Numbered from the stretch's first letter, positions 1,387-25,857 are shown. The stretch is 37,322 nucleotides of DNA from a virus (IMGVR_UViG_3300028361_000020:64001-101322), one strand, 5' to 3'. The notes: generated by a model not told the origin, from the letters alone. A program made the numbers and translations.

Positions 1387-1972
1387 CTTGTCTTACCTTT
1401 GTTGCAATTGTTTTATGAATGCCCGGATTAATCCGTAGCACATGAGGCATCATTGTGTGTCTAATATAGTTTCTACTATAGCATGTATCTTTGTTGCTGT
1501 CATCCTCGATGTGTGGCACATTGTGCATTGCTGCCCATAATTCTAGATCTCTCTTGCGATTGAGTCTAAATGGACGTAAGACATTTCCTCGTGTACGTGG
1601 AATAATTTTGCCTGTGCCGTGTATGCTGCTGAACAGCCAAGTTTCTACACAATCATCTAGGTGATGACATGTGATAATTGGCATATCAGTAAACCTGTCA
1701 AAAAACTTGTATCTTCGTGTTCTCCACTCTGCTTCCTTATTAGACACAGGCACATCTAATTCTTGTACACATGGATACCAATCAATGTCTCTTGTACGGC
1801 AATACTCGGATAAAAACCGATAAGCCGTATCTCCATGCGGGGTGCCGTGATGATAGTGCAACACTGTTACTTTGTGATTTCGACGCAGAAAGTCTAGTGC
1901 TGCCATACTATCAATTCCGCCAGAGCATGCTAGATAAATATCTCGAGGAAGTTTGCCTTGCAACTTGATCAT
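1379..1972 (-). CDS. tilS: tRNA(Ile)-lysidine synthetase-like PP-loop ATPase (catalytic domain only, 197 aa)
   Basis: LACSGGIDS PP-loop, HHLDDCVET, LRPF, DDSN-x4-YSRNYIR motifs typical of TilS. Confidence 0.9.
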   Translation of the reverse strand: MIKLQGKLPRDIYLACSGGIDSMAALDFLRRNHKVTVLHYHHGTPHGDTAYRFLSEYCRTRDIDWYPCVQELDVPVSNKEAEWRTRRYKFFDRFTDMPIITCHHLDDCVETWLFSSIHGTGKIIPRTRGNVLRPFRLNRKRDLELWAAMHNVPHIEDDSNKDTCYSRNYIRHTMMPHVLRINPGIHKTIATKVRQDG

Positions 1973-2262
1973 TTCTTTGCGGCCTTGTACTTCTTATAAT
2001 GATATATACTGTTGTATGGCACCGGTACTGATGTAAGTTGAATCTTTAAAAACTCGGCATTGCTAACGTCGCCGCTTTTGTATCTGTCCTTGATACAAAC
2101 TCGTCTGTCAGTTTTTGTATCAAATCTCCAAATTCTATCACTTCCGTAATCTATATTTATTTTGTCAACACACTCTTTGTTCACTGGCATGTAGTAATAC
2201 TGAATTGGACTAGTAATATAAGTGTTTTTGGTATACTCGTAATATTCAATGTACCTTGTCAT
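1969..2262 (-). CDS. hypothetical protein, 97 aa
   Basis: ORF with ATGA overlaps. Confidence 0.65.
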   Translation of the reverse strand: MTRYIEYYEYTKNTYITSPIQYYYMPVNKECVDKINIDYGSDRIWRFDTKTDRRVCIKDRYKSGDVSNAEFLKIQLTSVPVPYNSIYHYKKYKAAKK

Positions 2263-2729
2263 TCTGGTACTACCTTATGTCCTTTTAACTCCAGCATGGT
2301 CACATGCTTGGGCTTGAGCCATTTTGTTTCAGAAATACTCATACAAGGAATAACAATGTCATTGTTATTGAAGAAATATGCTGCTAGTTGCCAACTCAAA
2401 TATGTAGACTTACCCGATAATCGCCCAGCAGCGTGTATACCAAGTTGGCCGTAGCTGTTGTTGGGCCGCAGTGCCCGTCCAATAGATTGTACACCATAGA
2501 GACTTGTACTATAGAGACTTGAACTAGTCGGTTTGGTCACCAATGTGCCACCTTGGATTGGCACGTTTGGAAACACATAATCAACAATCTTTGACTTTTC
2601 CGGAACAGGAAACACTAGGCATTTTGCATAGCCCAGTCTCGGCATGCGATATGCATCACACGCATCTTTTCGTTGTTTGAGTCGATGGTCAAGGCTTACT
2701 TCAAAACGTAGGGCGCGGCGCGTTTTCAT
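2259..2729 (-). CDS. hypothetical protein with a P-loop-like GRLSGKST segment
   Basis: 156-aa ORF; motif alone is weak. Confidence 0.55.
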   Translation of the reverse strand: MKTRRALRFEVSLDHRLKQRKDACDAYRMPRLGYAKCLVFPVPEKSKIVDYVFPNVPIQGGTLVTKPTSSSLYSTSLYGVQSIGRALRPNNSYGQLGIHAAGRLSGKSTYLSWQLAAYFFNNNDIVIPCMSISETKWLKPKHVTMLELKGHKVVPE

Positions 2730-3054
2730 CTTCTTCTCCTTTTAACACTCTCCATGTATACGCCTTCTCAGCAGCTAGGGCCCAGGCGGCCCGTCTGCCA
2801 TCTACATCTCTTACCCAATCCATCATAATTTGCTCATTTCCAAAACTGCCGTTTGGAAAGTTTTGAAATACTGAAAATGCAATATTAGCAAGTATTTCTC
2901 TGTTTTGATGATCTGCGTTGTTGGAAGCTCTAAACAAGTCGTTGCACAGCACCGCCTCTAGAAATCCTCCGGGCATGCATCCAAACATCAAATAGTCAGA
3001 GGCGCTTTGTGTTGTCCGCGATTGCCCTACTTCGAAGTCAATATACATAGTCAT
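2701..3054 (-). CDS. hypothetical phage protein (PGGFLEAVLCNDLF motif)
   Basis: Start re-called to ATG 3054, which overlaps the upstream TGA at 3051. Confidence 0.7.
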   Translation of the reverse strand: MTMYIDFEVGQSRTTQSASDYLMFGCMPGGFLEAVLCNDLFRASNNADHQNREILANIAFSVFQNFPNGSFGNEQIMMDWVRDVDGRRAAWALAAEKAYTWRVLKGEEDENAPRPTF

Positions 3055-3398
3055 ATTATCACTCTTTTTGTTGGTTGTGTTTGTTCTATTCTCCAAACAC
3101 AAGTACCGTGCTTCCGTATTAGATCTGCTAATCCCTGCGGTGAATCTGTTGCAAGCTCGAGTAGTATGCCTTCGTTGATCCCTGCTTTGGCCGTAAACGT
3201 CCAAATTTCTGGTGAGCGCTGTGGATTTGCCTGTGCTCGCATAACTAGGAGCCTTATATCAACCGGACTACGAACATGTTCATTTATGTCTCTGAGAGTT
3301 GCTAATAACACTTGGTTTTCGTATGTTGTTATATCAACAATGCACTCAAATCCAAGTGAATCAAACAACGTGACAAATTTGTGTGCTTTATCAGACAT
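3051..3398 (-). CDS. hypothetical protein, 115 aa
   Basis: ORF packing. Confidence 0.65.
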   Translation of the reverse strand: MSDKAHKFVTLFDSLGFECIVDITTYENQVLLATLRDINEHVRSPVDIRLLVMRAQANPQRSPEIWTFTAKAGINEGILLELATDSPQGLADLIRKHGTCVWRIEQTQPTKRVII

Positions 3399-3667
3399 CA
3401 GGTATCACCTCCTAGGAAGTACTCGCTGTATTTCATAATAAGGAATGTTCTCTTCTTCTCGCTGTAAAAATCAAGCATGATGCATTTCTTATTGTAACGC
3501 GATTCATGTTGATTCCAGTCCGTGTGGTCTCTCCACGTAAACCCTAGTTTTTCTTTCATCCTGCGGCGCAACAAAAACACACTAGGCGGATGATCTTCTT
3601 TGAGCTTGGTTATGAACCTTTCAAAGTTTTGGTGGCTGACTTCAATGGGTTTTGTCATATTCTGCAA
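3398..3667 (-). CDS. hypothetical protein, 89 aa
   Basis: ORF packing. Confidence 0.65.
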   Translation of the reverse strand: MQNMTKPIEVSHQNFERFITKLKEDHPPSVFLLRRRMKEKLGFTWRDHTDWNQHESRYNKKCIMLDFYSEKKRTFLIMKYSEYFLGGDT

Positions 3668-3860
3668 TCGTGAGGATATCTTCTACTTTCCCATCGACCT
3701 TAGAGGTCGCTATGTACCCATCGTTGATTAGACTTTCAATGGTTGATGCAATAACAAACTTTCTTTGTGCGTCTGAGATCTTTTTAACACCATTTGAGAA
3801 TCCAACAATGGTGAAAATCACCGCTGTTATAAACAGATAGATGTATACTTCTGTGCTCAT
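3642..3860 (-). CDS. small membrane-anchored protein
   Basis: N-terminal hydrophobic stretch VYIYLFITAVIFTIVGF. Confidence 0.65.
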   Translation of the reverse strand: MSTEVYIYLFITAVIFTIVGFSNGVKKISDAQRKFVIASTIESLINDGYIATSKVDGKVEDILTIAEYDKTH

Positions 3861-4570
3861 GTGTTCTTCTCCAGTTTTTGTATTTTCGCATAGTTGACGG
3901 CTGTCATTGTCAACCCGGAATCTCTCTCGGTTTCACGTTTCTTAGACTTTGCTCTTAATCTAACAACTTCGCCTATATTGTACTTTTCGTCTTTAACAAA
4001 GCTAATAAGATCGCCGCCCAACCCTACAAAGTACAAATAAAGATCGTGATGTTTAAGGTAAATGCGCTTGAGTACTTCTACGTCCCCGTTGATCCATTTT
4101 CCTACTGCAATGTCTTGGCTGTTGTAATAGTTGTCTTTGAGATTCTGCTTGTATGCAATTGTGGCAGCTTCGTTTTCAATAAATGACGGAATGTATGCCA
4201 GCAGCCCGAGGTTTTGCGAAGTTACATCTTCTTGGAGGTATGCAGTATACATGTCTTTTTGAAATTCTGTAAGGCTGTCCCCAAGTATCAACATAGTAAA
4301 GCGCCGGAAGAATTTGTGTGTAGCCTGTGTCTGCAACCTGTCCTGCTCTGTAACAACAGCAGGCACAAAACCATTAGGCATTGCAGGCCGGTAGGCTTCG
4401 GTTGCAGCCGTAAGGGTTGCAGCCGCAGTAAGAGCTACAATATCTCTGTTGCTGTAACGATGTGCATCAGCCGCATAGTTACAAGAAATCTTTTCATACC
4501 CATTGTTTATGCGGTGTGCAGCAAATGAAATGTTAAGTATATCGTCAAATGCATAACTAAACTGGCCCAT
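3857..4570 (-). CDS. hypothetical phage protein, 237 aa
   Basis: GGAG Shine-Dalgarno and its own sigma70 promoter. Confidence 0.8.
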   Translation of the reverse strand: MGQFSYAFDDILNISFAAHRINNGYEKISCNYAADAHRYSNRDIVALTAAATLTAATEAYRPAMPNGFVPAVVTEQDRLQTQATHKFFRRFTMLILGDSLTEFQKDMYTAYLQEDVTSQNLGLLAYIPSFIENEAATIAYKQNLKDNYYNSQDIAVGKWINGDVEVLKRIYLKHHDLYLYFVGLGGDLISFVKDEKYNIGEVVRLRAKSKKRETERDSGLTMTAVNYAKIQKLEKNT

Positions 4571-4597
4571 GTAACTCTCCGTTGTTGCTTATGCATT

Positions 4598-4626
4598 ACT
4601 ATAACAATTACACGCAACAGAGTCAA
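4598..4626 (-). promoter_or_regulatory. sigma70-type promoter TTGACT-17-TATAGT
   Basis: Direct consensus match, 17-nt spacer. Confidence 0.7.
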
Positions 4627-4641
4627 CCTCTAATTGTTAAG

Positions 4642-4857
4642 CTACAATCTAAATGTTATCCGTCCTTTGGATAGGTCGTAAGGTGTCATGTCTAACTTGA
4701 CCCTGTCACCTTGTACTAGCCTAATTCTAAATTGTCTCATTTTTCCGCCAGTGTAACACGTAACATAATGTCCGTTGTCAAGTTCAACTTTAAATGTTTG
4801 ATTAGGGAGCACCTCTACAATGTTCCCTTCAATCTCGATTACTTCTTCTTTTGTCAT
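4642..4857 (-). CDS. infA: translation initiation factor IF-1
   Basis: [17 protein letters not shown]...GKMR..RI....GDRV....[13 protein letters not shown] is the IF-1 S1/OB signature. Confidence 0.97.
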
Positions 4858-4998
4858 TTTCTACCTTTGGTGGACGCCCGTTAGCTACACAGGGTTGGAC
4901 TCCTGCTTGTAACCCCTAATGCATATTAATTAAATACATTAGGACTTAGTGTTTTAGCAGTAGACCGCGACGGGCGAAGCGCGGCACTCTACTACATA
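4858..4998 (-). ncRNA. candidate structured 5' leader / ncRNA upstream of infA
   Basis: About 140 nt non-coding between a strong promoter and infA; 8-bp + 5-bp stem whose loop CGCCCGU is complementary to ACGGGCG near the ribosome-binding site; separate 10-bp stem. Confidence 0.5.
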
Positions 4999-5004
4999 GT
5001 CTTT

Positions 5005-5033
5005 ATTGTATTACACAACTAACAAGTTGTCAA
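5005..5033 (-). promoter_or_regulatory. sigma70-type promoter TTGACA-17-TACAAT
   Basis: Near-consensus match, 17-nt spacer. Confidence 0.8.
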
Positions 5034-5035
5034 TC

Positions 5036-5188
5036 TTATTTTATTATGTGTTTTGACGCAAAGTTTTTGCCATTCTTTTTTCGTTTTAGTGTTCGTTCTA
5101 ACAAATGTCTTTTAAGCTTTTCGGCTTTTTTAAGTTTTCCCTGCGCCAGCATTGAATACATCAACATTTTTTCTTCTAGGTATTTCAT
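5036..5188 (-). CDS. small basic protein, 50 aa (MKYLEEKMLMYSMLAQGKLKKAEKLKRHLLERTLKRKKNGKNFASKHIIK)
   Basis: Not in the ORF track; AAGGA Shine-Dalgarno upstream. Confidence 0.6.
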   Translation of the reverse strand: MKYLEEKMLMYSMLAQGKLKKAEKLKRHLLERTLKRKKNGKNFASKHIIK

Positions 5189-5210
5189 ATCTCATTCCTT
5201 TAGCTAAATA

Positions 5211-5879
5211 CTATTGGAGCATGAGGGCTTCATATCGTGGTTGGATGATGTGGGCTACGTCATTAGAACACATAACTTCGTAGTGCGTGTTCTCAACATA
5301 GACGCATTCCATGTCATCCTTTCTTTGTTCCATACTTGCTATTGTTACAACACCGTCATTTGGCGCCTTTATGTATGGAACAGTTCCAGTGGTGCTTATT
5401 ATCTGGGTCCACGGAATATTAATTGGCATGCTATTAGCCTCTGTTATAGGACGACTCTTTGAACCAACGTCTCTAAACAGCGGATAGCTTGGAATAATAT
5501 ACTTGGCCCAATCGGCAATAACAGAACCATTAAATGGTGTACTAATACTTATTCCGCCCACTACGTTGCAATGTTGAGTTAGGTGCAATCCGTAAATTCC
5601 TCCTAAACTGTGACCTATTACAAATAGAGGCTCTTTGCTACAAACAGAGGAGTGTATAAGATCTAAATTATCATAGAAGCTGTTTTCACTGGAGTAGTCA
5701 ATAAGTGTTGCTGGCCAATCCGGTAGTACCAATCTTAGATAATTAAAACTTGTACTGGTTTGCCCAGCACCATGAAGCCAAACAATATTAGGGCCAACAT
5801 GTGCAGACTTCTGATGCAATTCCTTTGATTCTATCTTAGGAGTCTTTTTTAAAAAATTAAATGACCAATCCATATACAT
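5211..5879 (-). CDS. alpha/beta-fold hydrolase (esterase/lipase-like)
   Basis: LHG oxyanion motif, GHSLGG nucleophile elbow, NDGVV and C-terminal His (THYE). Confidence 0.9.
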   Translation of the reverse strand: MYMDWSFNFLKKTPKIESKELHQKSAHVGPNIVWLHGAGQTSTSFNYLRLVLPDWPATLIDYSSENSFYDNLDLIHSSVCSKEPLFVIGHSLGGIYGLHLTQHCNVVGGISISTPFNGSVIADWAKYIIPSYPLFRDVGSKSRPITEANSMPINIPWTQIISTTGTVPYIKAPNDGVVTIASMEQRKDDMECVYVENTHYEVMCSNDVAHIIQPRYEALMLQ

Positions 5880-5881
5880 AT

Positions 5882-6568
5882 TTATTTGACTTCAGGAAAT
5901 AGGCAATCTTGTACAAAAGCTGTAACATCATCCTCACTGAGTCCGAGACTTGTCATTGTTTTTGGAGTGTGGGGGTTTTGCTTTTGATAGTGTGCATATT
6001 TGTTTTGTGCAGATTTGATCTCGTCGTGGTCTCCGGCAAAGTTATAATCACCAATTAGGTCCAAATATGAAAAAATACTATCTGTACTTAATTGAACTAT
6101 TTGCTCAAGCTCTTCTGTCTTCTGTACGTTTCCTGCTGCAATCATATGTTCGCTGAAAATAGCTTCTGCCCACTTAGGAAGTGCTCTTTTCTTTTTCCAT
6201 TCTAGTGCTGCTGCTTCATCTCCAAACGCTTCTATCATGTCGTGTGCTGGATCAATGGTTGCAGAATAGTCATGAAAGAATCCTGTAATTTTATTCTTAC
6301 CTGCAATAACGTCTAGGCCAAAGATAGGCCCATTGTTGTGCAGGTGAGGAAAAATACAACAATGCATCATCCATAACCCTTTGGTTTCTCTTGCATCGAC
6401 TACATCTATGTGGGCACGGCGATATTTTTCTCCAGTCCACACTTGATTGATCCACCCTGGTTGATTGAACTTGGCCATGCCTGGTTCAAATATTTCTGTA
6501 CCGGATTGCTCAAAGCTTCTAGTCAGTTCTTGTTGTATTCCTAATAGTGCAGTCCATACCTTACTCAT
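5882..6568 (-). CDS. pcyX: ferredoxin-dependent bilin reductase, PcyA/PcyX type
   Basis: RRAHIDVVDARE.KGLWMMHCCIFP, PIFGLDVIAG..K.TG.FHDYS motifs; adjacent to heme oxygenase. Confidence 0.85.
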   Translation of the reverse strand: MSKVWTALLGIQQELTRSFEQSGTEIFEPGMAKFNQPGWINQVWTGEKYRRAHIDVVDARETKGLWMMHCCIFPHLHNNGPIFGLDVIAGKNKITGFFHDYSATIDPAHDMIEAFGDEAAALEWKKKRALPKWAEAIFSEHMIAAGNVQKTEELEQIVQLSTDSIFSYLDLIGDYNFAGDHDEIKSAQNKYAHYQKQNPHTPKTMTSLGLSEDDVTAFVQDCLFPEVK

Positions 6569-7091
6569 TGCTTAGTTCCATGAATAGTTGTATAGCAAAC
6601 TGAAAACACCGATTTGCTTCGTCTGCCATATCTTCAGACAACCTTGCGCGTACAGTTGTCTTTAGTTCTTCTACATTGTCGAACTTGTACATCTTACCAC
6701 TGCCTGGATTTCGCTTGGAGATTATCTGGCCTCCATACATGTCGCCAAAGTGGCGCACATAGATGTGGGCAAGAATGTCAATAGGGTTTGTTAGTGCTTC
6801 GACGTAGTTAATGTATTCGGCTACAACGTTACATACTACTGGCGCGCTGAGTTTATATAACTTATTAAGCTCTTCGATGTCATCATGAATACTGCTGCTT
6901 CTACAAATCTCTTCGATGCCGGTTAGTACCCCGCGTTTTGTGGCATAATATTCCAATGCAACGTAGATGTGATATTGGTTAAACAGGTATTTGTGATATT
7001 CATCAGGGGTCATGCCCGCAAGTAATTTGCGAGCATGTGCTGTACGTTCAGCATCTTGGTGGTATTTCCACGTAAGATCTTTTAGGCTCAT
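6561..7091 (-). CDS. hemO: heme oxygenase (phage HemO type)
   Basis: LKDLTWKYHQDAE proximal His helix; LAHIYVRHFGDMYGGQII distal helix. Confidence 0.92.
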   Translation of the reverse strand: MSLKDLTWKYHQDAERTAHARKLLAGMTPDEYHKYLFNQYHIYVALEYYATKRGVLTGIEEICRSSSIHDDIEELNKLYKLSAPVVCNVVAEYINYVEALTNPIDILAHIYVRHFGDMYGGQIISKRNPGSGKMYKFDNVEELKTTVRARLSEDMADEANRCFQFAIQLFMELSNE

Positions 7092-16256: not shown

Positions 16257-16514
16257 TTAAAGTTCGCAATCGCCTGTCCACATATTGTGGTCGTCAAAAT
16301 ACCTACATAGGTTGTCGTGGCCGCCTACGTACTTTCCGTAAAGCCATATTTGTGGCACTGTTTTTGCAGTAGGAGCAGCTTCTAATAGCTGCTCCTTATT
16401 CCATACATTGCTAGAAAGATTTCTCTCTTCGAACTCGATGCCTTTGCTTGTCAGCATAGATTTTGCTTTAACGCAAAAATCACAACTGTCTTTGGTCCAT
16501 ATAACAGTGTTCAC
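16257..16514 (-). CDS. grx: glutaredoxin
   Basis: CDFC active site, TVPQI, YVGG; coupled to nrdB. Confidence 0.92.
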   Translation of the reverse strand: MNTVIWTKDSCDFCVKAKSMLTSKGIEFEERNLSSNVWNKEQLLEAAPTAKTVPQIWLYGKYVGGHDNLCRYFDDHNMWTGDCEL

Positions 16515-17641
16515 AAGCTCAGGCCTTTGAAAGTGTCACCGTCAACATCGCGCTTGGTGCCGCCGTTGACATAACTGGTAATTTGTGTTTCTTGTGGAGC
16601 CACTTGTACGTCTGCCCCACTGATCCACTTTTGTGTCCACGGTAATGGATTATCTCTCGGGGTTTTGTATGGACACGGCAAATATACGTTTTGCATACGC
16701 TTGGCACAAATCCACTCAATATAGTTGTCCAGCAGCTCTCTATTGATACCCAGCATTGATCCATCCTTGAACAGATAATCGGCCCATGCTTTTTCTTGAT
16801 CAACTGCATCAACAAACATTTGCACACATTCGTCTTCTGTTTCTTCTGCAATTTTTGCAAAGTCTGGATCGTCTTTCTTAAGGATTTTCAGCAACATCTG
16901 GGTCGAGGCAAGGTGCAAGTTTTCATCACGTGCAATAAGCTTGATGATTTGGGCATTGCCGTCCATCTTCTTGATTTCAGCAAATGCCCAGCTGCATGCA
17001 AAGCTAACGTAAAATCTTACGCCTTCGAGGATGTTCACACTCATTAGTGTTAGCCACAACAGCTTCTTAAGTTCGTACAAGTCCACAACAACTTTTTTGC
17101 CGTTGACTGTATGCGTGCCCACGCCTAGAAGATTGTAATACGAAGACATTTCAATCAAATTATCATAATACTTGGAGATGTCTTCTGCGCATTCGACAAT
17201 CTCTTTGATGTCCAGCAACTCGTCAAAGATCTTACTAGGATTTGTGTAGATATTGCGTATGATGTGCGTGTAGCTGCGGCTGTGAATTGTTTCAGAGAAC
17301 GTCCATGTGGTGATCCAGTTTTCAATCTCCGGCAAGCTTACAATTGGGCTAAATGCTTCCATAGGTGCGCGCCCTTGCACACTGTCCAAAAGAATTTGGC
17401 GCTTGAGATTGCTAGTAAAGATGTGCTGTTCGTGGTCAGTTAAATCTTTGAAGTCTTTTGAATCTTGTGTGACATCAATTTCTTCTGGTCTCCAAAAGAA
17501 TCCAAGCTGTTTTTCAGTTAACTGCTCAAATTGTTTGTATTTTAGTGTGTCGTATCGTTGTATAGTTGGGCCACCACTTGGGTCTAAAAATGCTGTTACT
17601 TTAGTGTGGTCGACTTTGTTGTTTATGTCAAAAACGCTCAT
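16511..17641 (-). CDS. nrdB: class Ia ribonucleotide reductase beta subunit, 376 aa
   Basis: FFWRPEE, DSVQGR, ETIHSRSY, EGVRFY.SF, DENLH; start re-called to ATG 17641 with GAGG Shine-Dalgarno. Confidence 0.97.
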   Translation of the reverse strand: MSVFDINNKVDHTKVTAFLDPSGGPTIQRYDTLKYKQFEQLTEKQLGFFWRPEEIDVTQDSKDFKDLTDHEQHIFTSNLKRQILLDSVQGRAPMEAFSPIVSLPEIENWITTWTFSETIHSRSYTHIIRNIYTNPSKIFDELLDIKEIVECAEDISKYYDNLIEMSSYYNLLGVGTHTVNGKKVVVDLYELKKLLWLTLMSVNILEGVRFYVSFACSWAFAEIKKMDGNAQIIKLIARDENLHLASTQMLLKILKKDDPDFAKIAEETEDECVQMFVDAVDQEKAWADYLFKDGSMLGINRELLDNYIEWICAKRMQNVYLPCPYKTPRDNPLPWTQKWISGADVQVAPQETQITSYVNGGTKRDVDGDTFKGLSL

Positions 17642-17665
17642 TGAATATCCTCTGTTGTATCTACG

Positions 17666-17694
17666 AGTGTAACACGCCCCGTTGGGCGTGTCAA
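17666..17694 (-). promoter_or_regulatory. nrdB sigma70-type promoter TTGACA-17-TACACT with an 8-bp inverted repeat filling the spacer
   Basis: ACACGCCC-4-GGGCGTGT at 17672..17691. Confidence 0.7.
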
Positions 17695-17711
17695 TGGTTA
17701 TATAGTGTGGA

Positions 17712-18263
17712 TCAAAGCTTGCAGGATTCGCAATCTGAGTCGTCATCTGCATCAACTTGCTCGAGTTCTGGCAAGTCTTCTTCACCTAGCATCTTGTTAA
17801 CGTCAAGTTCTCCTTGACCATCGTTTGTTTGGAAATAATAAAGCTGCTTGCCGCCATATTTGTAGAACATCACCATGTGTTGCAGCATTACACTCATTGG
17901 AATCTTTTCATCTTCGTAAAACTCAGGATTGTAGCTGGTGTTAACACTGATGCCTTGGTCTATGTACTTTTGTAGCACAGACATAATTTTTAGATATCCT
18001 TCGGGCGACTTTTGTGTCCAGAGCAGATCGTACTTGTTTTTAAGGCGCTTGTATTCCGGTACTACTTGCTTTAGTACTCCGTGCTTGCTTTGCTTTACAC
18101 TAATAAATGCACGCGGCGGCTCGATGCCATTTGTTGCATTTGCAATTTGCGCACTAGTGTTATGACTAATGCATCCATTTGACAAGGTATAAGTTTCGTT
18201 GTCAGTTGAAACATCCCAAGTGTGTTCTGTTCCTGCGTCTCTTGTAATACGTTTAATTTTCAT
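17712..18263 (-). CDS. nrdA: NrdA fragment 4: 35-aa split-intein C-half + C-terminal NrdA extein (148 aa)
   Basis: ...TWDVST.NETYTLSNGCISHN | TSAQIANATNGIEPPR...KQLYY...CESCKL; start re-called to ATG 18263. Confidence 0.95.
   Translation of the reverse strand: MKIKRITRDAGTEHTWDVSTDNETYTLSNGCISHNTSAQIANATNGIEPPRAFISVKQSKHGVLKQVVPEYKRLKNKYDLLWTQKSPEGYLKIMSVLQKYIDQGISVNTSYNPEFYEDEKIPMSVMLQHMVMFYKYGGKQLYYFQTNDGQGELDVNKMLGEEDLPELEQVDADDDSDCESCKL
18159..18263 (-). mobile_element. split intein B, C-terminal half (IntC, Thr at +1)
   Basis: Block F (TWDVST) and block G (SHN). Confidence 0.88.
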
Positions 18264-18412
18264 TTTAATAATTCCTCTTTTGTAATTGAACATTTTCCTT
18301 GTTTTGACACGTTATCTTCCCAGGGAATAAATTCTAAATTTTGCAAGCTTCCTAATAGCGCAGGATTAATTCCTTCAATAAATCCTCGAGATATTGAAAA
18401 TTTATGATCTAG
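18260..18412 (-). pseudogene. C-terminal relic of an HNH-type homing endonuclease (50 codons)
   Basis: LDHKFSISRGF.EGI.P..LG.L.NL..IPW..N.SK..KC; its TGA overlaps the IntC ATG; no start codon. Confidence 0.75.
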
Positions 18413-19366
18413 TCATTTATCATTAACGCTAACAATATCGTCATCTTCTAATAAATCTTTAACTTCAATCCATTCTTTTATGTTATTTCGTAATACAAGA
18501 AGTTTGTGATTATTAGTAAATTTATATACTGATCCGTCTTCTAATTCAATTTCTGTAACAGATTGAGGGCCATTATAATAACATTCATATGCTATACTAT
18601 CTGACAATTCAACTGGTTTAAGGAATGGAAATCTCTGACCTATCATGAATTTTTCGTGAACAGTGTTAATATCAATTTTTCCGTAATCTTGAATAACTTC
18701 GGCGAGCGTTACAACTGTTCCATCTTTTAGCCTCATTTCATTTGCCAAGCTTTGACATTCGGCGGGCATAAGGGCCATTAGTGTAGAGTTTCTTATGCCC
18801 GTGTCTTTAAGCTGCGTTCTCAGTCCTTGCCAGTCCATACGTTCAACATGTGGAATTAGTTGATCCAAATCTTTCTTGTATGTCTGGTTAGGGGTAATAC
18901 CGTGTCCGTACTTAGTTTCCATGTTTCCGGTAGGCGCGCCAAATTCTGTTGCTAGGTCTGCGCTGGCTTTGATGAGATAGAAACTCCAGGCTTCTGCCCA
19001 TTCGTCAATTAATGCAAGTCCGTCGCTGTCAATGTCTTGGTAATTGAGATTGTTTTTAGCAAGCCAATATGCAAAGTTGATAATACCAACTCCAAGTGGT
19101 CGACGCTTGTCGGTTGATAGTTGTGCAGCTAGAATTGGATAATGTTGATAGCTTAGTAGTGCGTCCAGTCCACGTACTGCAAGGCGACAAACTCTTTCAA
19201 AATCAGCAGGAGTCTTAATATTGCCCCAATTAATTGCTGAGAGCGTACACAAGCTGATAGCAGCACCGTCATAGTCTTCTACCATTTCGTCTACATATAT
19301 GTATTCTTCATCTTCTCGAATATTGTTTTCGTTTTCTACTACTTCATATAACCAATTATTTTCCAT
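18413..19366 (-). CDS. nrdA: NrdA fragment 3: acidic 33-aa leader + NrdA extein (~170 aa) + 114-aa split-intein N-half
   Basis: ISLCTLSAINWG...RRPLGVGIINFAY...RNSTLMALMPAE | CQSL...FTNNH; AAGGA Shine-Dalgarno. Confidence 0.95.
   Translation of the reverse strand: MENNWLYEVVENENNIREDEEYIYVDEMVEDYDGAAISLCTLSAINWGNIKTPADFERVCRLAVRGLDALLSYQHYPILAAQLSTDKRRPLGVGIINFAYWLAKNNLNYQDIDSDGLALIDEWAEAWSFYLIKASADLATEFGAPTGNMETKYGHGITPNQTYKKDLDQLIPHVERMDWQGLRTQLKDTGIRNSTLMALMPAECQSLANEMRLKDGTVVTLAEVIQDYGKIDINTVHEKFMIGQRFPFLKPVELSDSIAYECYYNGPQSVTEIELEDGSVYKFTNNHKLLVLRNNIKEWIEVKDLLEDDDIVSVNDK
18416..18757 (-). mobile_element. split intein B, N-terminal half (IntN)
   Basis: Cys1 after MPAE, block B TNNH, WIEVKDLLEDDDI end motif. 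Confidence 0.85.
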
Positions 19367-19655
19367 TGTTATTCCTTGCTACCTTATGTACTTTTTTGCC
19401 ATTAAATTTCTCTTTGTCTAATCGTAAAATGCCATCTACTGACTTTTTATATTCTAAATATTCATTATATTTGTTTTTGGGAATTCTTATTTTACGTCGG
19501 TGAGCGCCGTCATTGAGATCTTTCAGCGGCTTGGTGGGTAAAGTAATTTCGGCACAATTGTGTACTAGTATTCCGTTTGCAAAGAAATTTTCATTGCCCA
19601 ACACTGTGATATCGTACACTGCTTCTCTTTTATTTTGTCTTGTAATTTTTAGCAT
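19356..19655 (-). CDS. nrdA: NrdA fragment 2: 33-aa split-intein C-half + 16-aa catalytic extein CAEITLPTKPLKDLND + basic 50-aa tail
   Basis: VYDITV.GNENFFANGILVHN | CAEITLPTKPL matches the E. coli C439-x-E441 segment. Confidence 0.93.
   Translation of the reverse strand: MLKITRQNKREAVYDITVLGNENFFANGILVHNCAEITLPTKPLKDLNDGAHRRKIRIPKNKYNEYLEYKKSVDGILRLDKEKFNGKKVHKVARNNNGK
19557..19655 (-). mobile_element. split intein A, C-terminal half (IntC, Cys at +1)
   Basis: Blocks F/G: VYDITV, NFFANGILVHN. Confidence 0.93.
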
Positions 19656-19719
19656 TTATTTTTTTTCCTTGAGTATATTGGAGATTTTTTGTTTATATTC
19701 GATACGGAGATTAATTTAG

Positions 19720-21783
19720 TTACGATATTAAAAGTCTGTCAGTTTCCGTTAATTCTTGCGCTTCTACATACCCTCGGTTCAATGTATAAATTTTATGCTC
19801 AGGTGTGCATTCTATAGTCTTTCCGGAATCTTCGTCAAAGATACTAATAACTTCTGCATCCGGGTTGGTCTTTGCAAATGCTTCAACCTTTTTATACTCT
19901 GTTTTATTATCAAGTATATTGTAAGATTTAACTAACAGATCTTCGTCCTGAACCATTAACGTTCCGATTTCGTCGAGATTAATAATTAATTTTTCATTAT
20001 TGAATATTACTTCAATCTTAGTGTCGCCTGTTAGACATAAGTTACTCTGGCGGATAGGAGCAAACTCCGGAATAAAACTTCCATGGTCGTTTGCATTGTC
20101 AACATTCTGCAGATAGATTCTACCTGTGGACTTGCGCTCTTCCATAAACTTACTGAATAGTTCGCTTGCTTTAACAGTTTTCTTGCGTAGTTTTGTAGTG
20201 CGTTCTGCTTTTTCATATAGTTCGCGGAACTTGTCTTGGTCTGCAAAAAATGCTTCATACAACCCGGGTACGTCGCTGGGTGAGAATAGTGTTATGTTGC
20301 CGCCTGTGATTAATCTTTCGTACATCAGCTTGTTGAACTGTACTCCGTAGTCCATGTGACGGATACGGTTTTCTTCAGTTCCTTTGTTGTTTTTCAACAC
20401 CAGCAATTCTTCTGCTTCTAGATGCCATATTGGATAATAGATAGTAGCGGCGCCGCCGCGTACACCACCTTGACTGTTGTGAGTTAACACCATTGAGTCA
20501 GACATCAACGAACTTGCAAAAAACGTATTGGTGTCTTCCACTGTAATGTCAACGTATCCTGTTGGATTTTGTTGACCGACTGTAATCGAATATAGATATA
20601 CAGTGCCATTTTCTGAAATAATATTGTTGTATTCTGTAAGTTCCTGAGGATACTTTTGTGTTACGACATTGTTGTCTAGAATCATAATTGGATGATTTAT
20701 ACTACAATTTATCACTGTTCCGTTTGTAAATTCCAGCCTAACCTGCTGATCTTCTGTTACCAGCGTATCCCATTTGTTAATAACTTTTCGGTATACAATC
20801 TTGCCGTCTTCGTAGGATTTAATTTTCATTCCAGTAGTAAGATCTGCAATGCGGATTTTTTTTGTTTCTAGCCCGTCTTCGTTAATTATTTCAACAATTG
20901 TATCCGGAGTTAGACAACAACTTTTAACTGCTGACTGGAAATGCTTGTAGAATGGAATGATACCAGTGTGATATGCATCGCCTTTGCGTATTGGCGAGTT
21001 AATGGCGCGGATGTTCCCTGCGCCAATGCCGATGCCTGCTTTTTGACTCACATACTTGACAATCGACGCAGAAGTAGCGCTGATGCTGTCAAGGCTGTCA
21101 TCTGTTTCAATAAGCACACAACTACTGAATTGACGTTGTGGTGTGCGCACACCTGCCATAACTGGCGTAGGAAGACTGATGTCGTGGAGGCTGATTGCGT
21201 CGTAGTATTCTTTAATCCACGTTAATCGAGTTTCTTTTGGATACGACGAGAACAAGGTAGCAGCAATCAATGCATAACACATTTGTGGGGTTTCAAAGAT
21301 TTCTCCAGTGACTCTGTTCTGCACCAAGTACTTGCCTCTAAGCTGCTCCATTGCGACATAAGTTAACTGTTCGTCACGGTCGTGTTTGATAAAACTGTCT
21401 ATTTTATCCCATTCGTCGTTGGTGTAAGTATCTTTTAATTCTGGATCATAGTAGCCGCGGGCGGTGTTCAAGTCCACCAATTTCTTAATATGAAAAGGAT
21501 CAAACCCGCCGTATACTTCTTTTCGCAACCCGTAGTTGATGAGTCTTCCTCCAACATATTGATAGTTTGGCGTTTCTTCTGTGATCAGATCTGCTGCTGC
21601 TTTGATCAATGTTTCTTGTATTTCTTTGCTTTTGATGCCATTGAAAAACTCCAGCTTGCTTTTAATTTCAACTTCGCTTGGACTAACTCCTGTTATGCCT
21701 TCGCATGCGTAAAATGCAACTTTGTGCAACTTTTCGATGTCCAGTGGCTCCAACGAACCACTCCTCTTAGTGACTTGAATCAT
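19720..21783 (-). CDS. nrdA: NrdA fragment 1 (687 aa): ATP-cone + N-terminal catalytic part, with a cis mini-intein and a C-terminal split-intein N-half
   Basis: VTKRSG ATP cone, QFSSCVLI, SQKAGIGI, KSC|SQGGVRGGAAT, IRQSNL|C; start re-called to ATG 21783. Confidence 0.97.
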   Translation of the reverse strand: MIQVTKRSGSLEPLDIEKLHKVAFYACEGITGVSPSEVEIKSKLEFFNGIKSKEIQETLIKAAADLITEETPNYQYVGGRLINYGLRKEVYGGFDPFHIKKLVDLNTARGYYDPELKDTYTNDEWDKIDSFIKHDRDEQLTYVAMEQLRGKYLVQNRVTGEIFETPQMCYALIAATLFSSYPKETRLTWIKEYYDAISLHDISLPTPVMAGVRTPQRQFSSCVLIETDDSLDSISATSASIVKYVSQKAGIGIGAGNIRAINSPIRKGDAYHTGIIPFYKHFQSAVKSCCLTPDTIVEIINEDGLETKKIRIADLTTGMKIKSYEDGKIVYRKVINKWDTLVTEDQQVRLEFTNGTVINCSINHPIMILDNNVVTQKYPQELTEYNNIISENGTVYLYSITVGQQNPTGYVDITVEDTNTFFASSLMSDSMVLTHNSQGGVRGGAATIYYPIWHLEAEELLVLKNNKGTEENRIRHMDYGVQFNKLMYERLITGGNITLFSPSDVPGLYEAFFADQDKFRELYEKAERTTKLRKKTVKASELFSKFMEERKSTGRIYLQNVDNANDHGSFIPEFAPIRQSNLCLTGDTKIEVIFNNEKLIINLDEIGTLMVQDEDLLVKSYNILDNKTEYKKVEAFAKTNPDAEVISIFDEDSGKTIECTPEHKIYTLNRGYVEAQELTETDRLLIS
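19723..20037 (-). mobile_element. split intein A, N-terminal half (IntN, 105 aa)
   Basis: CLTGDT block A, CTPEHKIYTLNRGYV block B, typical of phage NrdA/NrdJ split inteins. Confidence 0.95.
20476..20916 (-). mobile_element. cis mini-intein, 147 aa, no endonuclease, inserted at KSC|SQGG
   Basis: CLTPDT block A, CSINH block B, YVDITV block F, LTHN + Ser(+1). Confidence 0.93.
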
Positions 21784-21829
21784 TCTTTTTCCTTTAAATG
21801 TGTACGGTAACTGTAAAACAGCTAGGTAT

Positions 21830-22255
21830 TTATTGTAGTTTTTGTGGAGTAAATTGTTTTTCAACTGTGATATGCACAGGTATTTGTTGTCTGTCTACTG
21901 CACAATCTGCATGGTAACCAATTACCATGTCGTCAACATACAGTAGATATTTTATCTCCGACTTTGCTCTATCTGCACAGATATATATCTCAAAAACTGA
22001 TTCCGAAAAGCGATTAGTTAACTGCAAAGTGTAGCATATTCCCAGAATAATGGAAAACTCGCAGTATACATTTTCGTAAACCAGTTCCCATGCGTTTGGC
22101 CATAACTTGTCGGCATACGGATCACAAGATATGCCGACCAGCGGTGCAGTATTGTAGAAGTCAACGGCGTCCTGAATAGGATACGCCGATGTCTCCAGCG
22201 TACTTCTAAAAGCTGACCATTCACGAAGACGGTCAACGTAATCTTTTTCAAACAT
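21830..22255 (-). CDS. hypothetical phage protein, 141 aa
   Basis: ORF coupled to the upstream stop. Confidence 0.75.
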   Translation of the reverse strand: MFEKDYVDRLREWSAFRSTLETSAYPIQDAVDFYNTAPLVGISCDPYADKLWPNAWELVYENVYCEFSIILGICYTLQLTNRFSESVFEIYICADRAKSEIKYLLYVDDMVIGYHADCAVDRQQIPVHITVEKQFTPQKLQ

Positions 22256-24186: not shown

Positions 24187-25116
24187 TTACTTTCTTTTTG
24201 GCATTAATCTTCCTCGAACCCATCCTTTACTATTCCAATCCTGCAATTCGTCTATTTTTATTTTTTTGTTTTCTTGTCCATTATTAATCCATGCTGTATT
24301 TCTACGAGATTCTTTCATTTGTATGGATTTTTCAACTCCGTAAATTTCTTCGTAAGATTTTCCTTTTGTATCAAGAGTTAACCCTTTATTCCATGAAGAT
24401 TTGCCCTTCATTATGTTTGACATTTTTGCTAATCTCAAATCTGTTTCTTTTGTTTTGCCTGCATTCCATGGAGTTTTTCCTATCATATCAGGGCGAGGCT
24501 TTCCTTTTTTAGACTCTGCGTACTTTGCAACTTTTTCACAAGTTTCTTTTGTTTTGTCTTTATTCCATGCGGTCTTACCTTTTTTCTTTTCATTAGAATT
24601 CTTTCTAATTTCTTTTCCTTTTTCAGAATCATTAAATATTTTTATACCTTTTGAAATTGCTTCACAGCGTTCTTTGCTATAACTTCCTAATTTTTGTCCT
24701 TTTAAATGCGAAGGCTTACCTTTATGTGCCTCGCTTATTTTTATTTTTGTTTCCTCAGTTAGAATGCGTCCGCCTCGGCCGCCCGCGTCGATATTAGTTA
24801 ACCTTCCAGTCTTAATACATCTTCGTCCGTAAAACTCAATTAATTTTCTTTCTTTCTCACATGCTTCATTGTATGTTAAATTTTCATATGGAAATCGATA
24901 TTCTATATCGATTTCTTTTTCAACTAACTGTAATATTACATGTATCTTATACATGTTTAATTTTTTAATATTTTTTATTTGATTGTTTTTGTATTTTATC
25001 GCTTCTCGAATATGATCTTTATATCTAGGCTGTGTGGTTTTCCTGTTGTGTTTCCCGTATCCAACATAGATAGGCTCATTATCAATAGGATTCCATAATT
25101 CGTAAATGTAATACAT
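24187..25116 (-). mobile_element. free-standing GIY-YIG homing endonuclease with NUMOD3-type repeats, 309 aa
   Basis: YYIYELWNP....IYVG, conserved R/E/N, EETKIKISEAHKGK and PWNKG repeats; AT-rich; start re-called to ATG 25116 (AAGGA). Confidence 0.85.
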
Positions 25117-25154
25117 TTTTTTCCTTTTGCATACGCTGTTGCTCATAACAAAAG

Positions 25155-25160
25155 TATTTA
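25155..25160 (-). promoter_or_regulatory. late-type TAAATA promoter for the endonuclease
   Basis: GATAAATAC context, repeated at other intergenic sites. Confidence 0.5.
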
Positions 25161-25164
25161 TCAA

Positions 25165-25857
25165 TTATGCACAATTCTTATAATAATCGTATACTCTGTC
25201 CCATGCTTTTTTTGACCAGTATTCCCATTCATCCGGCCATACATCAAACTGTTGATATTCGAGAGCACGCGAGCACATAAAGATATGGCCTTCACGAATA
25301 TCGGTACCATGGACTTCATTATGTGCAATACCATAAAGAACAATTTGTAATCGATAGTCTTCTACCCATTCGAGCTTCTTAGGCTTGTTGGTTTGTTTGA
25401 AGTCGATTATCGAAGGGTTGCCTTTGAATGTTCCTACTAGGTCAGTTGTACCTGCATAGACATCAGGAACATATAATGCAACTTCGCTGCCCCATATTTG
25501 ATCTACATGTACCATAGCTTCGTTACGTATAACACATGCCATTTTATGAGCTTGCTGTGCATACGGATTGCTTCCGGCACTTGGCCATTCACCGGTTTCC
25601 ACATAAGTCTCGAGATACTTGTGCATTCTGGTACCAACACCGGCTGCTTCGACGGTAATCTCTTGCGCCTTTTGATGGCCTACTCTCTTGCGCCATTCGT
25701 GCAAGTGTGTCTGATCCTTGGTTGCGCCAAGGATGGTAGTAACACTAGGAACAGGAATGTTACCGGCGCCACTGTAGCGCCGTTTGCCATCTACTTCGAC
25801 TCTTGAAAGTTTTCTATAATCGTACTTGGGTTTAATTAATGTCAACTGTATCTCCAT
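25165..25857 (-). CDS. PD-(D/E)xK exonuclease (T4-like/MGME1-like)
   Basis: PSVTTIL, GT.MH..LE, YAGTTDL, IIDFKQT motifs. Confidence 0.88.
   Translation of the reverse strand: MEIQLTLIKPKYDYRKLSRVEVDGKRRYSGAGNIPVPSVTTILGATKDQTHLHEWRKRVGHQKAQEITVEAAGVGTRMHKYLETYVETGEWPSAGSNPYAQQAHKMACVIRNEAMVHVDQIWGSEVALYVPDVYAGTTDLVGTFKGNPSIIDFKQTNKPKKLEWVEDYRLQIVLYGIAHNEVHGTDIREGHIFMCSRALEYQQFDVWPDEWEYWSKKAWDRVYDYYKNCA

Follow-up and report, generated by a model that had tools for sequence, protein, structure and literature searches.

Can an essential enzyme be made from a gene that is broken into four separate reading frames? The question is raised by the nrdA gene, encoding the large (alpha) subunit of ribonucleotide reductase (RNR), in a stretch of 37,322 nucleotides (nt) of a viral metagenomic contig (IMGVR_UViG_3300028361_000020:64001-101322), hereafter called the window. 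A preliminary description of this DNA had proposed that the four frames would yield an active enzyme through one cis-splicing event, two trans-splicing events and one non-covalent assembly. Our analysis supports this interpretation: all these mechanisms fit the anatomy of the locus, with splicing and activity predicted from sequence. We consider it probable (roughly 0.78) that the class Ia nrdA in the window is a working gene, belonging to a large T4-like lake phage, that it was fragmented by four independent mobile-element insertions whose endonuclease genes are all gone, and that its products would be matured by splicing and assembly.

A complete class Ia NrdA in four colinear pieces

The gene lies on the minus strand, as do all the features of the locus placed below by window coordinates, and occupies four consecutive open reading frames (ORFs), as the preliminary description had it: ORF1 (21783..19720, 687 amino acids, aa), ORF2 (19655..19356, 99 aa), ORF3 (19366..18413, 317 aa) and ORF4, which ends at 17712 and has 193 aa if read from 18293. 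The true start of ORF4 is probably the ATG at 18263, which has GAGGA 9 nt upstream and from which gene callers predict 183 aa. Pieces 1, 3 and 4 colinearly cover the Pfam domains ATP-cone (PF03477), Ribonuc_red_lgN (PF00317) and Ribonuc_red_lgC (PF02867, positions 1-523), which is the domain order of class Ia NrdA, and matches to Intein_splicing fall on pieces 1, 2 and 3. The structure of the large subunit of Escherichia coli (R1) matches the NrdA of the window with an E-value of 5e-178 (HMMER). Residues 3-289 and 437-585 of piece 1 align to R1 6-292 and 293-441, residues 31-207 of piece 3 to R1 454-627, and residues 33-162 of piece 4 to R1 607-740. Once the intein parts and two extensions foreign to NrdA are removed, the exteins measure 435 (289+146), 18, 171 and 148 aa and, when concatenated, are colinear with the complete enzyme. 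The earlier count (about 435, 16, 170 and 148) is essentially the same.

All the residues of the class Ia catalytic set (C225, N437, C439, E441, C462, Y730/Y731 and the C-terminal Cys pair) were found, each on the piece to which it had previously been attributed. Extein 1a (20917..21783, 289 aa), delimited by Pfam and the R1 alignment, comprises the ATP-cone, the all-alpha domain and the start of the barrel with the C225 equivalent (C222), and ends in KSC; its ATG is preceded, 7 nt upstream, by the Shine-Dalgarno motif AAGGA. The other exteins were delimited by the R1 alignment. Extein 1b (20038..20475, 146 aa, R1 293-438) ends in QSNL, including the N437 equivalent. Extein 2 (19503..19556, 18 aa, CAEITLPTKPLKDLNDGA) carries within CAEI both E441 and C439, the latter being also the +1 residue of an intein. 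Extein 3 (18758..19270, 171 aa, approximately R1 454-623) has the C462 equivalent at C40 of ORF3 and ends in MPAE. Finally, extein 4 (17712..18158, 148 aa, starting with TSAQIANATNGIEPP) holds the Tyr-Tyr pair and terminates in CESCKL before the stop, so that its C-terminal Cys pair is CESC (CxxC), not CxxxxC.

The layout recurs in independent assemblies

Could the four ORFs result from errors of metagenome assembly or sequencing? The window is a metagenomic contig, and Logan unitigs are fragmented between 17800 and 18760, which would both be compatible with an artefact. We regard this explanation as practically negligible, because Logan contigs from the lake-water runs X1 and X7 show 0 differences to the window over 18731-21900, X7 being a run that was not flagged as its source (X1 is possibly the source run). 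The gap between ORF3 and ORF4 is bridged by a 625-nt contig of X1, and a contig of X8 shows 3 differences over 18731-20379. We searched for the same layout in other phage sequences, using the exact 99-aa product of ORF2 as a signature for the combination of the first split intein and the tail described below. This product is present on at least 24 contigs from JGI, ENA and Logan assemblies. In the six places shown with the exact ORF2, which come from six samples, the layout is identical as far as each contig extends, and the four contigs that reach far enough show all four ORFs, with 687, 99, 317 and 183 aa. Since contigs without a single difference span the junctions and the exact ORF2 recurs so often, the stops are not errors.

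One cis and two split inteins

The first interruption is a cis mini-intein of 147 aa (20476..20916; CLTPDT...VLTHN, with the Ser of SQGG as +1 residue) in piece 1, between the equivalents of R1 C292 and S293. It was identified by a match to PT-HINT, by its motifs and fold, and by an intein-less allele. The features of a class 1 intein are complete: Cys1, CSINHP (block B, SxxH), YVDITVEDTNTFF (block F), LTHN and Ser+1. The motifs CS.NHP, Y.DITVEDT.TFF and LTHN are nearly invariant among 38 homologues. The AlphaFold2 (AF2) model has a HINT (Hedgehog/intein) fold with a predicted local distance difference test (pLDDT) score of 97.7, and Foldseek matches it to solved inteins and bacterial intein-like (BIL) domains with template modelling (TM) scores of 0.73-0.81 and probability 1.00. 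A contig of a salt-lake relative (run X12) skips exactly the 441 nt from 20476 to 20916, and KSC-SQGG is also uninterrupted in the relatives L087, L009 and L090. The copy of L088, an IMG/VR contig, is broken after ~24 aa by a 293-aa ORF whose only Pfam match is DUF7487. We also observed that the family of this intein (P0138-P0175) consists mostly of atypical split forms, with a large C-part starting at residue ~17 and an N-part of only about 13-24 aa (L088, L103).

The other two inteins are split. Split intein 1 is located directly before C439 (QSNL / CAEI). Its N-half (19720..20037, 105 aa, net charge -11; CLTGDT...TPEH...LLIS) ends with the stop of ORF1, and its C-half (19557..19655, 33 aa; ...VYDITV..NFFANGILVHN) opens ORF2. 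The N-half matches Intein_splicing (593-685) and the structure 8ubs of the NrdJ-1 intein (E 3e-12). The C-half also matches Intein_splicing (125-155), and 14 of its 15 PDB matches, all weak (E 0.02-0.9), are C-termini of inteins or intein-like proteins. Split intein 2 is located between MPAE and TSAQ. Its N-half (18413..18757, 114 aa; CQSLAN...TNNH...VNDK; Intein_splicing 264-312, E 1.8e-4) ends with the stop of ORF3, and its C-half (18159..18263, 35 aa; MKIKRITRD...TWDVSTD..SNGCISHN) begins at the probable start of ORF4, 9 nt after GAGGA. Both pairs thus have the anatomy of naturally split inteins, with CLTGDT/TPEH and VYDITV..NFFANGILVHN before Cys in the first, and CQSLAN/TNNH and TWDVSTD..SNGCISHN before Thr in the second. 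The TxxH and HN motifs, the +1 Cys or Thr and the solved intein relatives are what one would expect if, as suggested previously, pieces 1/2 and 3/4 were joined by trans-splicing. Cis or endonuclease-containing versions exist at both sites in other phages. As the N-halves of the two pairs are just 16% identical and the C-halves 30%, the pairs are unlikely to cross-react. For protein ligation, it is of practical interest that the gene offers two natural split inteins obliged to coexist in this way, one using Thr+1.

One or both pairs might instead merely dock, or splice solely under particular redox conditions, leaving the enzyme partly held together non-covalently. The +1 Cys of split intein 1 would stay conserved regardless, because it is the catalytic C439, block A of split intein 2 (CQSLAN) is unusual and its +1 residue is Thr, and conditional splicing is known for other inteins. 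We find this unlikely, given that both split inteins keep Cys1, TxxH and the terminal HN, and that diverged halves of intein 2 keep these motifs under purifying selection (omega, the ratio of nonsynonymous to synonymous divergence, dN/dS, of 0.04-0.16). Furthermore, Campylobacter phage IBB_35 has cis versions of both inteins at these sites, which would make splicing obligatory there, and intein 1, if unspliced, would sit on the thiyl-radical cysteine.

A break without an intein between ORF2 and ORF3

No intein motif was found at the break between ORF2 and ORF3, which falls between CAEITLPTKPLKDLNDGA and DGAAISLCTLSA. ORF2 ends instead with a basic tail of 48 aa and a stop (19356..19502, net charge +11, isoelectric point, pI, 10.4), and ORF3 starts with an acidic head of 32 aa (19271..19366, net charge -11, pI 4.05). 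The tail, which is not NrdA sequence, was recognised by its charge and its conserved family, the head by its charge and its public homologues. The ATG of ORF3 overlaps the stop of ORF2 (ATGGAAAATAA) and has AAGGA 6-7 nt upstream; ORF3 is in the +1 frame relative to ORF2, with an overlap of 11 nt. The lack of intein features, the opposite charges and the position in the loop where the NrdA of phage Aeh1 is also broken are consistent with the non-covalent junction that had been proposed here, the assembly itself being suggested by analogy with Aeh1.

The tail differs from those of relatives with dN of 0.17-0.23 and dS near saturation, and the tail and head together show omega of about 0.1-0.2 (about 0.2 for the head), diverging like the host gene. 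By this measure they are old and constrained. They are also widespread: there are more than 50 distinct heads among public proteins, and NrdA-b proteins with such heads, where NrdA-b denotes the C-terminal half of the broken enzyme, fall into more than 60 clusters and are encoded on contigs as long as 335 kb. One two-piece nrdA free of endonuclease genes, L105, is found on 22 contigs. The tail and head of the window are homologous to the L103 type (z 6.2-6.6), and the head to the L101 type (z 3.6). We also considered the head as a degenerate C-half of an intein, and rejected this since hhalign comparisons of 51 heads with 13 C-halves gave probabilities below 0.1%.

ORF2 and ORF3 could alternatively be joined covalently, by recoding (a +1 frameshift at AAA-TAA) or by RNA splicing, leaving an insertion of ~80 aa in the enzyme. 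Such a protein exists: in P0028 (L114 45-1757), an uninterrupted NrdA, tail and head are naturally fused in frame (...NGKKGTQGTT-MENDWLYEIV...), though the fusion comes from a single 3-kb contig and could also be an error. The +1 frame of ORF3 and its 11-nt overlap with ORF2 would suit recoding. We nevertheless think covalent joining very unlikely. ORF3 has a strong AAGGA and its own ATG, a 780-nt endonuclease gene separates the same tail stop and head start in relatives, and the halves of the Aeh1 enzyme are translated independently. No Rfam family matches 17500-22000 even at E<=10, and no intron or other RNA was seen at the break, whereas the group I intron model finds the probable intron in nrdA of Klebsiella phage KP13-7. 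In the AF2 model of P0028 the tail forms a strand and a helix and the head a strand, with means over 10-residue blocks of up to pLDDT 86, and the linker at the position of the former break is disordered; this hints that the tail/head module is structured. The predicted complex of tail and head (P0002 34-99 with P0003 1-60) scored 0.05, with both chains poorly folded, and speaks neither for nor against an interaction.

Lost endonucleases and a probable recent spread of the inteins

DNA comparison with relatives revealed three sites in the window from which an endonuclease gene is cleanly absent: ~885 nt at 19703/19711, ~786 nt at 19371-19381 and ~860 nt at 18412/18415. The 64-nt spacer with AAGGA before ORF2 (19656..19719) is the empty counterpart of a site that in L088 is occupied by an HNH endonuclease gene of 885 nt. 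In L087, L009, L090 and L011, an ORF of ~260 aa with a GIY-YIG-like start and no Pfam match separates the same tail and head, and L107 gives a faint SegE GIY-YIG match at this position. Between ORF3 and ORF4 the window retains the last ~50 codons of an HNH homing endonuclease (18263..18412, 150 nt, LDHKFSISRGF...KEELLK), lacking a start codon. They align to L088 5867-6016, the 3' end of a 335-aa endonuclease ORF. The stop of this remnant overlaps the ATG of the C-half of split intein 2. At the same site, L007 keeps a 93-aa remnant and L008, L009 and L010 a full endonuclease gene, and the same lake samples also contain alleles with an insertion at 18412/18417.

Endonuclease-bearing versions of the breaks are thus found among the relatives L087, L009, L090, L011 and L088. 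A free-standing endonuclease gene between intein halves, by which Dassa et al. 2009 define fractured genes, is present in L088, L008-L010 and KP13-7; the corresponding halves in the window are separated by spacers of 64 nt and 119 nt. By these comparisons, the window is a derivative that has lost its endonuclease genes. Because the HNH remnant survives at 18263-18412, the endonuclease-free state is derived at least at the ORF3/ORF4 site.

The inteins and their host gene have different histories. The N-half of split intein 1 has a single, synonymous difference to L088 in 315 nt, the N-half of split intein 2 has 2-4 differences to L087, L008 and L088 in 342 nt, and the C-half of the latter is identical in L087, L008, L009 and L088. 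Compared with L087, L088 and L009, the exteins show about 15-18% protein difference and saturated synonymous sites. Intein DNA that is near-identical between genomes whose exteins are synonymously saturated indicates that the intein cassettes have spread laterally and recently.

Several other traces of mobile elements were observed. Perfect hairpins cover the ribosome-binding site and start of inserted endonuclease genes at L088 3052-3085 and L087 4180-4210 (e.g., CCGTACATAG-AGGTAAATA-CTATGTACGG), and resemble the translational control described for mobE, the endonuclease gene of Aeh1, and for endonucleases of fractured genes. The salt-lake relative of run X12 has a 710-nt insertion between nrdA and nrdB (window position 17700-17725), and L111 has a 377-aa GIY-YIG/NUMOD3 ORF between nrdB and the glutaredoxin gene (4526-5659). 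In the window itself, a 325-aa homing-endonuclease-like ORF at 24187-25164 (PHROG matches to homing/HNH endonucleases) adjoins an exonuclease gene (25165-25857) and represents another mobile insertion.

A working gene or a decaying one?

Taking the observed anatomy, the integrity of the motifs, the fold of the cis intein, the purifying selection and the recurrence in independent assemblies together, we propose the following maturation. One operon would supply four polypeptides, whose ORFs each have a Shine-Dalgarno motif and an ATG of their own, with ORF3 coupled to ORF2 by the ATGGAAAATAA overlap. In ORF1, the 147-aa class 1 mini-intein would splice in cis and so connect KSC with SQGG. QSNL would be trans-spliced to CAEI by the acidic 105-aa N-half that terminates ORF1 and the 33-aa C-half that opens ORF2, with the thiyl-radical Cys439 itself as the +1 nucleophile, and the product of ORF1 and ORF2 would be a 501-aa NrdA-a ending in the 48-aa basic tail. 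Likewise, MPAE would be linked to TSAQ, with Thr+1, through trans-splicing between the N-half in ORF3 (114 aa) and the C-half in ORF4 (35 aa), which would give a 351-aa NrdA-b starting with the 32-aa acidic head. NrdA-a and NrdA-b would then assemble without a peptide bond, as in Aeh1, into (alpha-a/alpha-b)2, with NrdB2 and the adjacent glutaredoxin as partners. The genes of both partners are intact directly downstream of nrdA: nrdB (16511..17641, 376 aa, PF00268) encodes the small subunit, and is directly followed by a gene for a glutaredoxin/thioredoxin-like reductant with CDFC (16257..16514, 85 aa). A scan of the locus for sigma-70-like promoters gave matches at chance level, and the T4 late promoter motif TATAAATA was not found near it.

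The four pieces could instead be a decaying, non-functional nrdA in a phage that relies on its host's RNR or on another phage RNR located beyond the recovered fragment. Dwivedi et al. interpreted the multiply interrupted nrdA of Campylobacter phages as degenerating (PMC3653736), and just ~27% of the genome of the phage studied here was recovered. Decay seems quite unlikely, since the catalytic and intein motifs are all intact, no ORF has lost its ribosome-binding site, many samples show the same stable layout, and nrdB and the glutaredoxin gene are intact. Selection points the same way: dN is far below dS in the exteins, tail and head (omega about 0.05-0.2) as well as in the intein halves (omega 0.12-0.16 for the N-half of split intein 2 against more distant copies). 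In addition, the split enzyme of Aeh1 sets a precedent, with normal specific activity.

Some points do weigh against a working, spliced and assembled enzyme. Splicing, assembly and activity are here deduced from conservation. The preliminary description had named a separate intact nrdA as evidence that would speak for decay: there is no further match to PF02867 and none to PF13597 in the 101-kb record, a result made uninformative by the record covering only about 27% of the genome, which leaves room for a second RNR elsewhere. The Pfam scores of the split intein halves are under the curated cut-off, as expected since they are only halves. The tails of Aeh1 drive the dimerisation of heterodimers, not the binding of a to b, and comparisons of the window's tail and head with those of Aeh1, by hidden Markov models and Smith-Waterman alignment, did not score above composition-preserving shuffles (883/3000, 300/3000, z about 1), nor did similarity to L105 exceed shuffles.

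A more far-reaching interpretation, to which we give even odds, is that of a ratchet in a fully functional gene. Each of four selfish insertions would have left behind a self-repair device (the cis intein, the two mutually orthogonal split inteins and the conserved docking module made of tail and head), and all these devices would have outlived the endonucleases; an essential enzyme would therefore need four polypeptides and three splicing reactions. The tail and head would, by the same interpretation, be a widespread and independently evolving heterodimerisation module of phage NrdA, separate from that of Aeh1 and not derived from an intein.

Comparison with known systems

The break between ORF2 and ORF3 is best compared with the 'genes in pieces' nrdA-a/mobE/nrdA-b of phage Aeh1 (Friedrich et al. 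2007; Crona et al. 2011, PMC3045599), whose tails (pI 10.4 and 3.8) are indispensable both for activity and for the a/b heterodimer to dimerise (PMC3045599). In both cases the break lies in the same loop, between the strand of C439/E441 and the strand of C462, without intein motifs. Both have a basic NrdA-a tail (pI 10.4 in each) and an acidic NrdA-b head (pI 3.8 in Aeh1, 4.05 in the window), and the halves of the window would likewise be translated separately. However, the break of the window is about 6 residues further along the loop, and neither its tail nor its head shows significant sequence similarity to the Aeh1 counterpart. No endonuclease gene separates the halves in the window, and the ORF that relatives have at this position is GIY-YIG-like, not the HNH mobE. 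Furthermore, both halves of the window would first have to be built by trans-splicing.

The split inteins resemble those of the fractured genes described by Dassa et al. 2009 (PMC2677866), in which split inteins are accompanied by a free-standing endonuclease, and which include NrdA-1 to NrdA-7. As in these, the intein halves are found at the end of one ORF and the start of its neighbour on the same strand, the N-half is acidic in the window, and split intein 1 is directly N-terminal to the thiyl-radical Cys, a site reported for metagenomic NrdA loci (PMC2677866). Unlike most of them, both split inteins of the window lack an endonuclease gene, a state represented by the single gp41-7 locus (PMC2677866), and the gene combines two split inteins with a cis intein and a non-intein break.

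Multiply interrupted RNR genes of phages are known, and the Campylobacter phage case was considered possibly degenerating (PMC3653736). The nrdA of Campylobacter phage IBB_35 has inteins at or near the same three positions as the window. The middle one is split, with ORFs between its halves, whereas the first and third are contiguous, the latter being a cis version at the site of split intein 2, so that this nrdA is in two ORFs and has no tail/head break. Klebsiella phage KP13-7 (Alcyoneusvirus, OP617745; L005) and contig L088 have split inteins at the same two sites as the window. KP13-7 differs by GIY-YIG and HNH genes between the halves and by a probable group I intron at the first site (RF00028 at 2300-3010, 43.3 bits, E 1.5e-9, below the gathering score of 50). 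Its nrdA (1426-6956) is in four coding pieces, the intron match, with a 128-aa ORF, follows ...KSCSQG, and all are annotated as hypothetical proteins. L088 has intein-half DNA nearly identical to that of the window, and differs by three split inteins (the first split atypically after ~24 aa), three endonuclease genes and no tail/head break. L103 combines an atypical split intein with the tail/head break. The arrangements of KP13-7 and L088 are not annotated, and we found no description of either in the literature. Among cultured phages, megablast of the locus gave only matches of ~100 nt to nrdA of Acinetobacter T4-like phages.

The preliminary description had presented the combination as one not known from a single gene. 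In our limited literature search, no publication turned up on a single gene that combines two split inteins with a cis intein and an Aeh1-type break, but the claim must be softened, because L088, KP13-7, IBB_35 and L103 have equally complex nrdA genes. Nor is it a new principle, since each mechanism has been published, from cis inteins in RNR to split inteins in fractured genes (PMC2677866) and the tails of Aeh1 (PMC3045599), and multiply interrupted nrdA genes are known elsewhere. The locus would be a natural case of one essential enzyme that depends jointly on cis splicing, two orthogonal trans-splicing reactions and a non-covalent junction. The 'tails' solution of Aeh1, described as unique in 2010, turns out to be common in uncultured large phages. 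In summary, the relatives of the window capture every intermediate state (without intein, intein with endonuclease gene, endonuclease remnant, no endonuclease, and re-fused tail and head), and therefore the homing cycle, and the fixation of fragmentation after endonuclease loss, can be read in one gene family.

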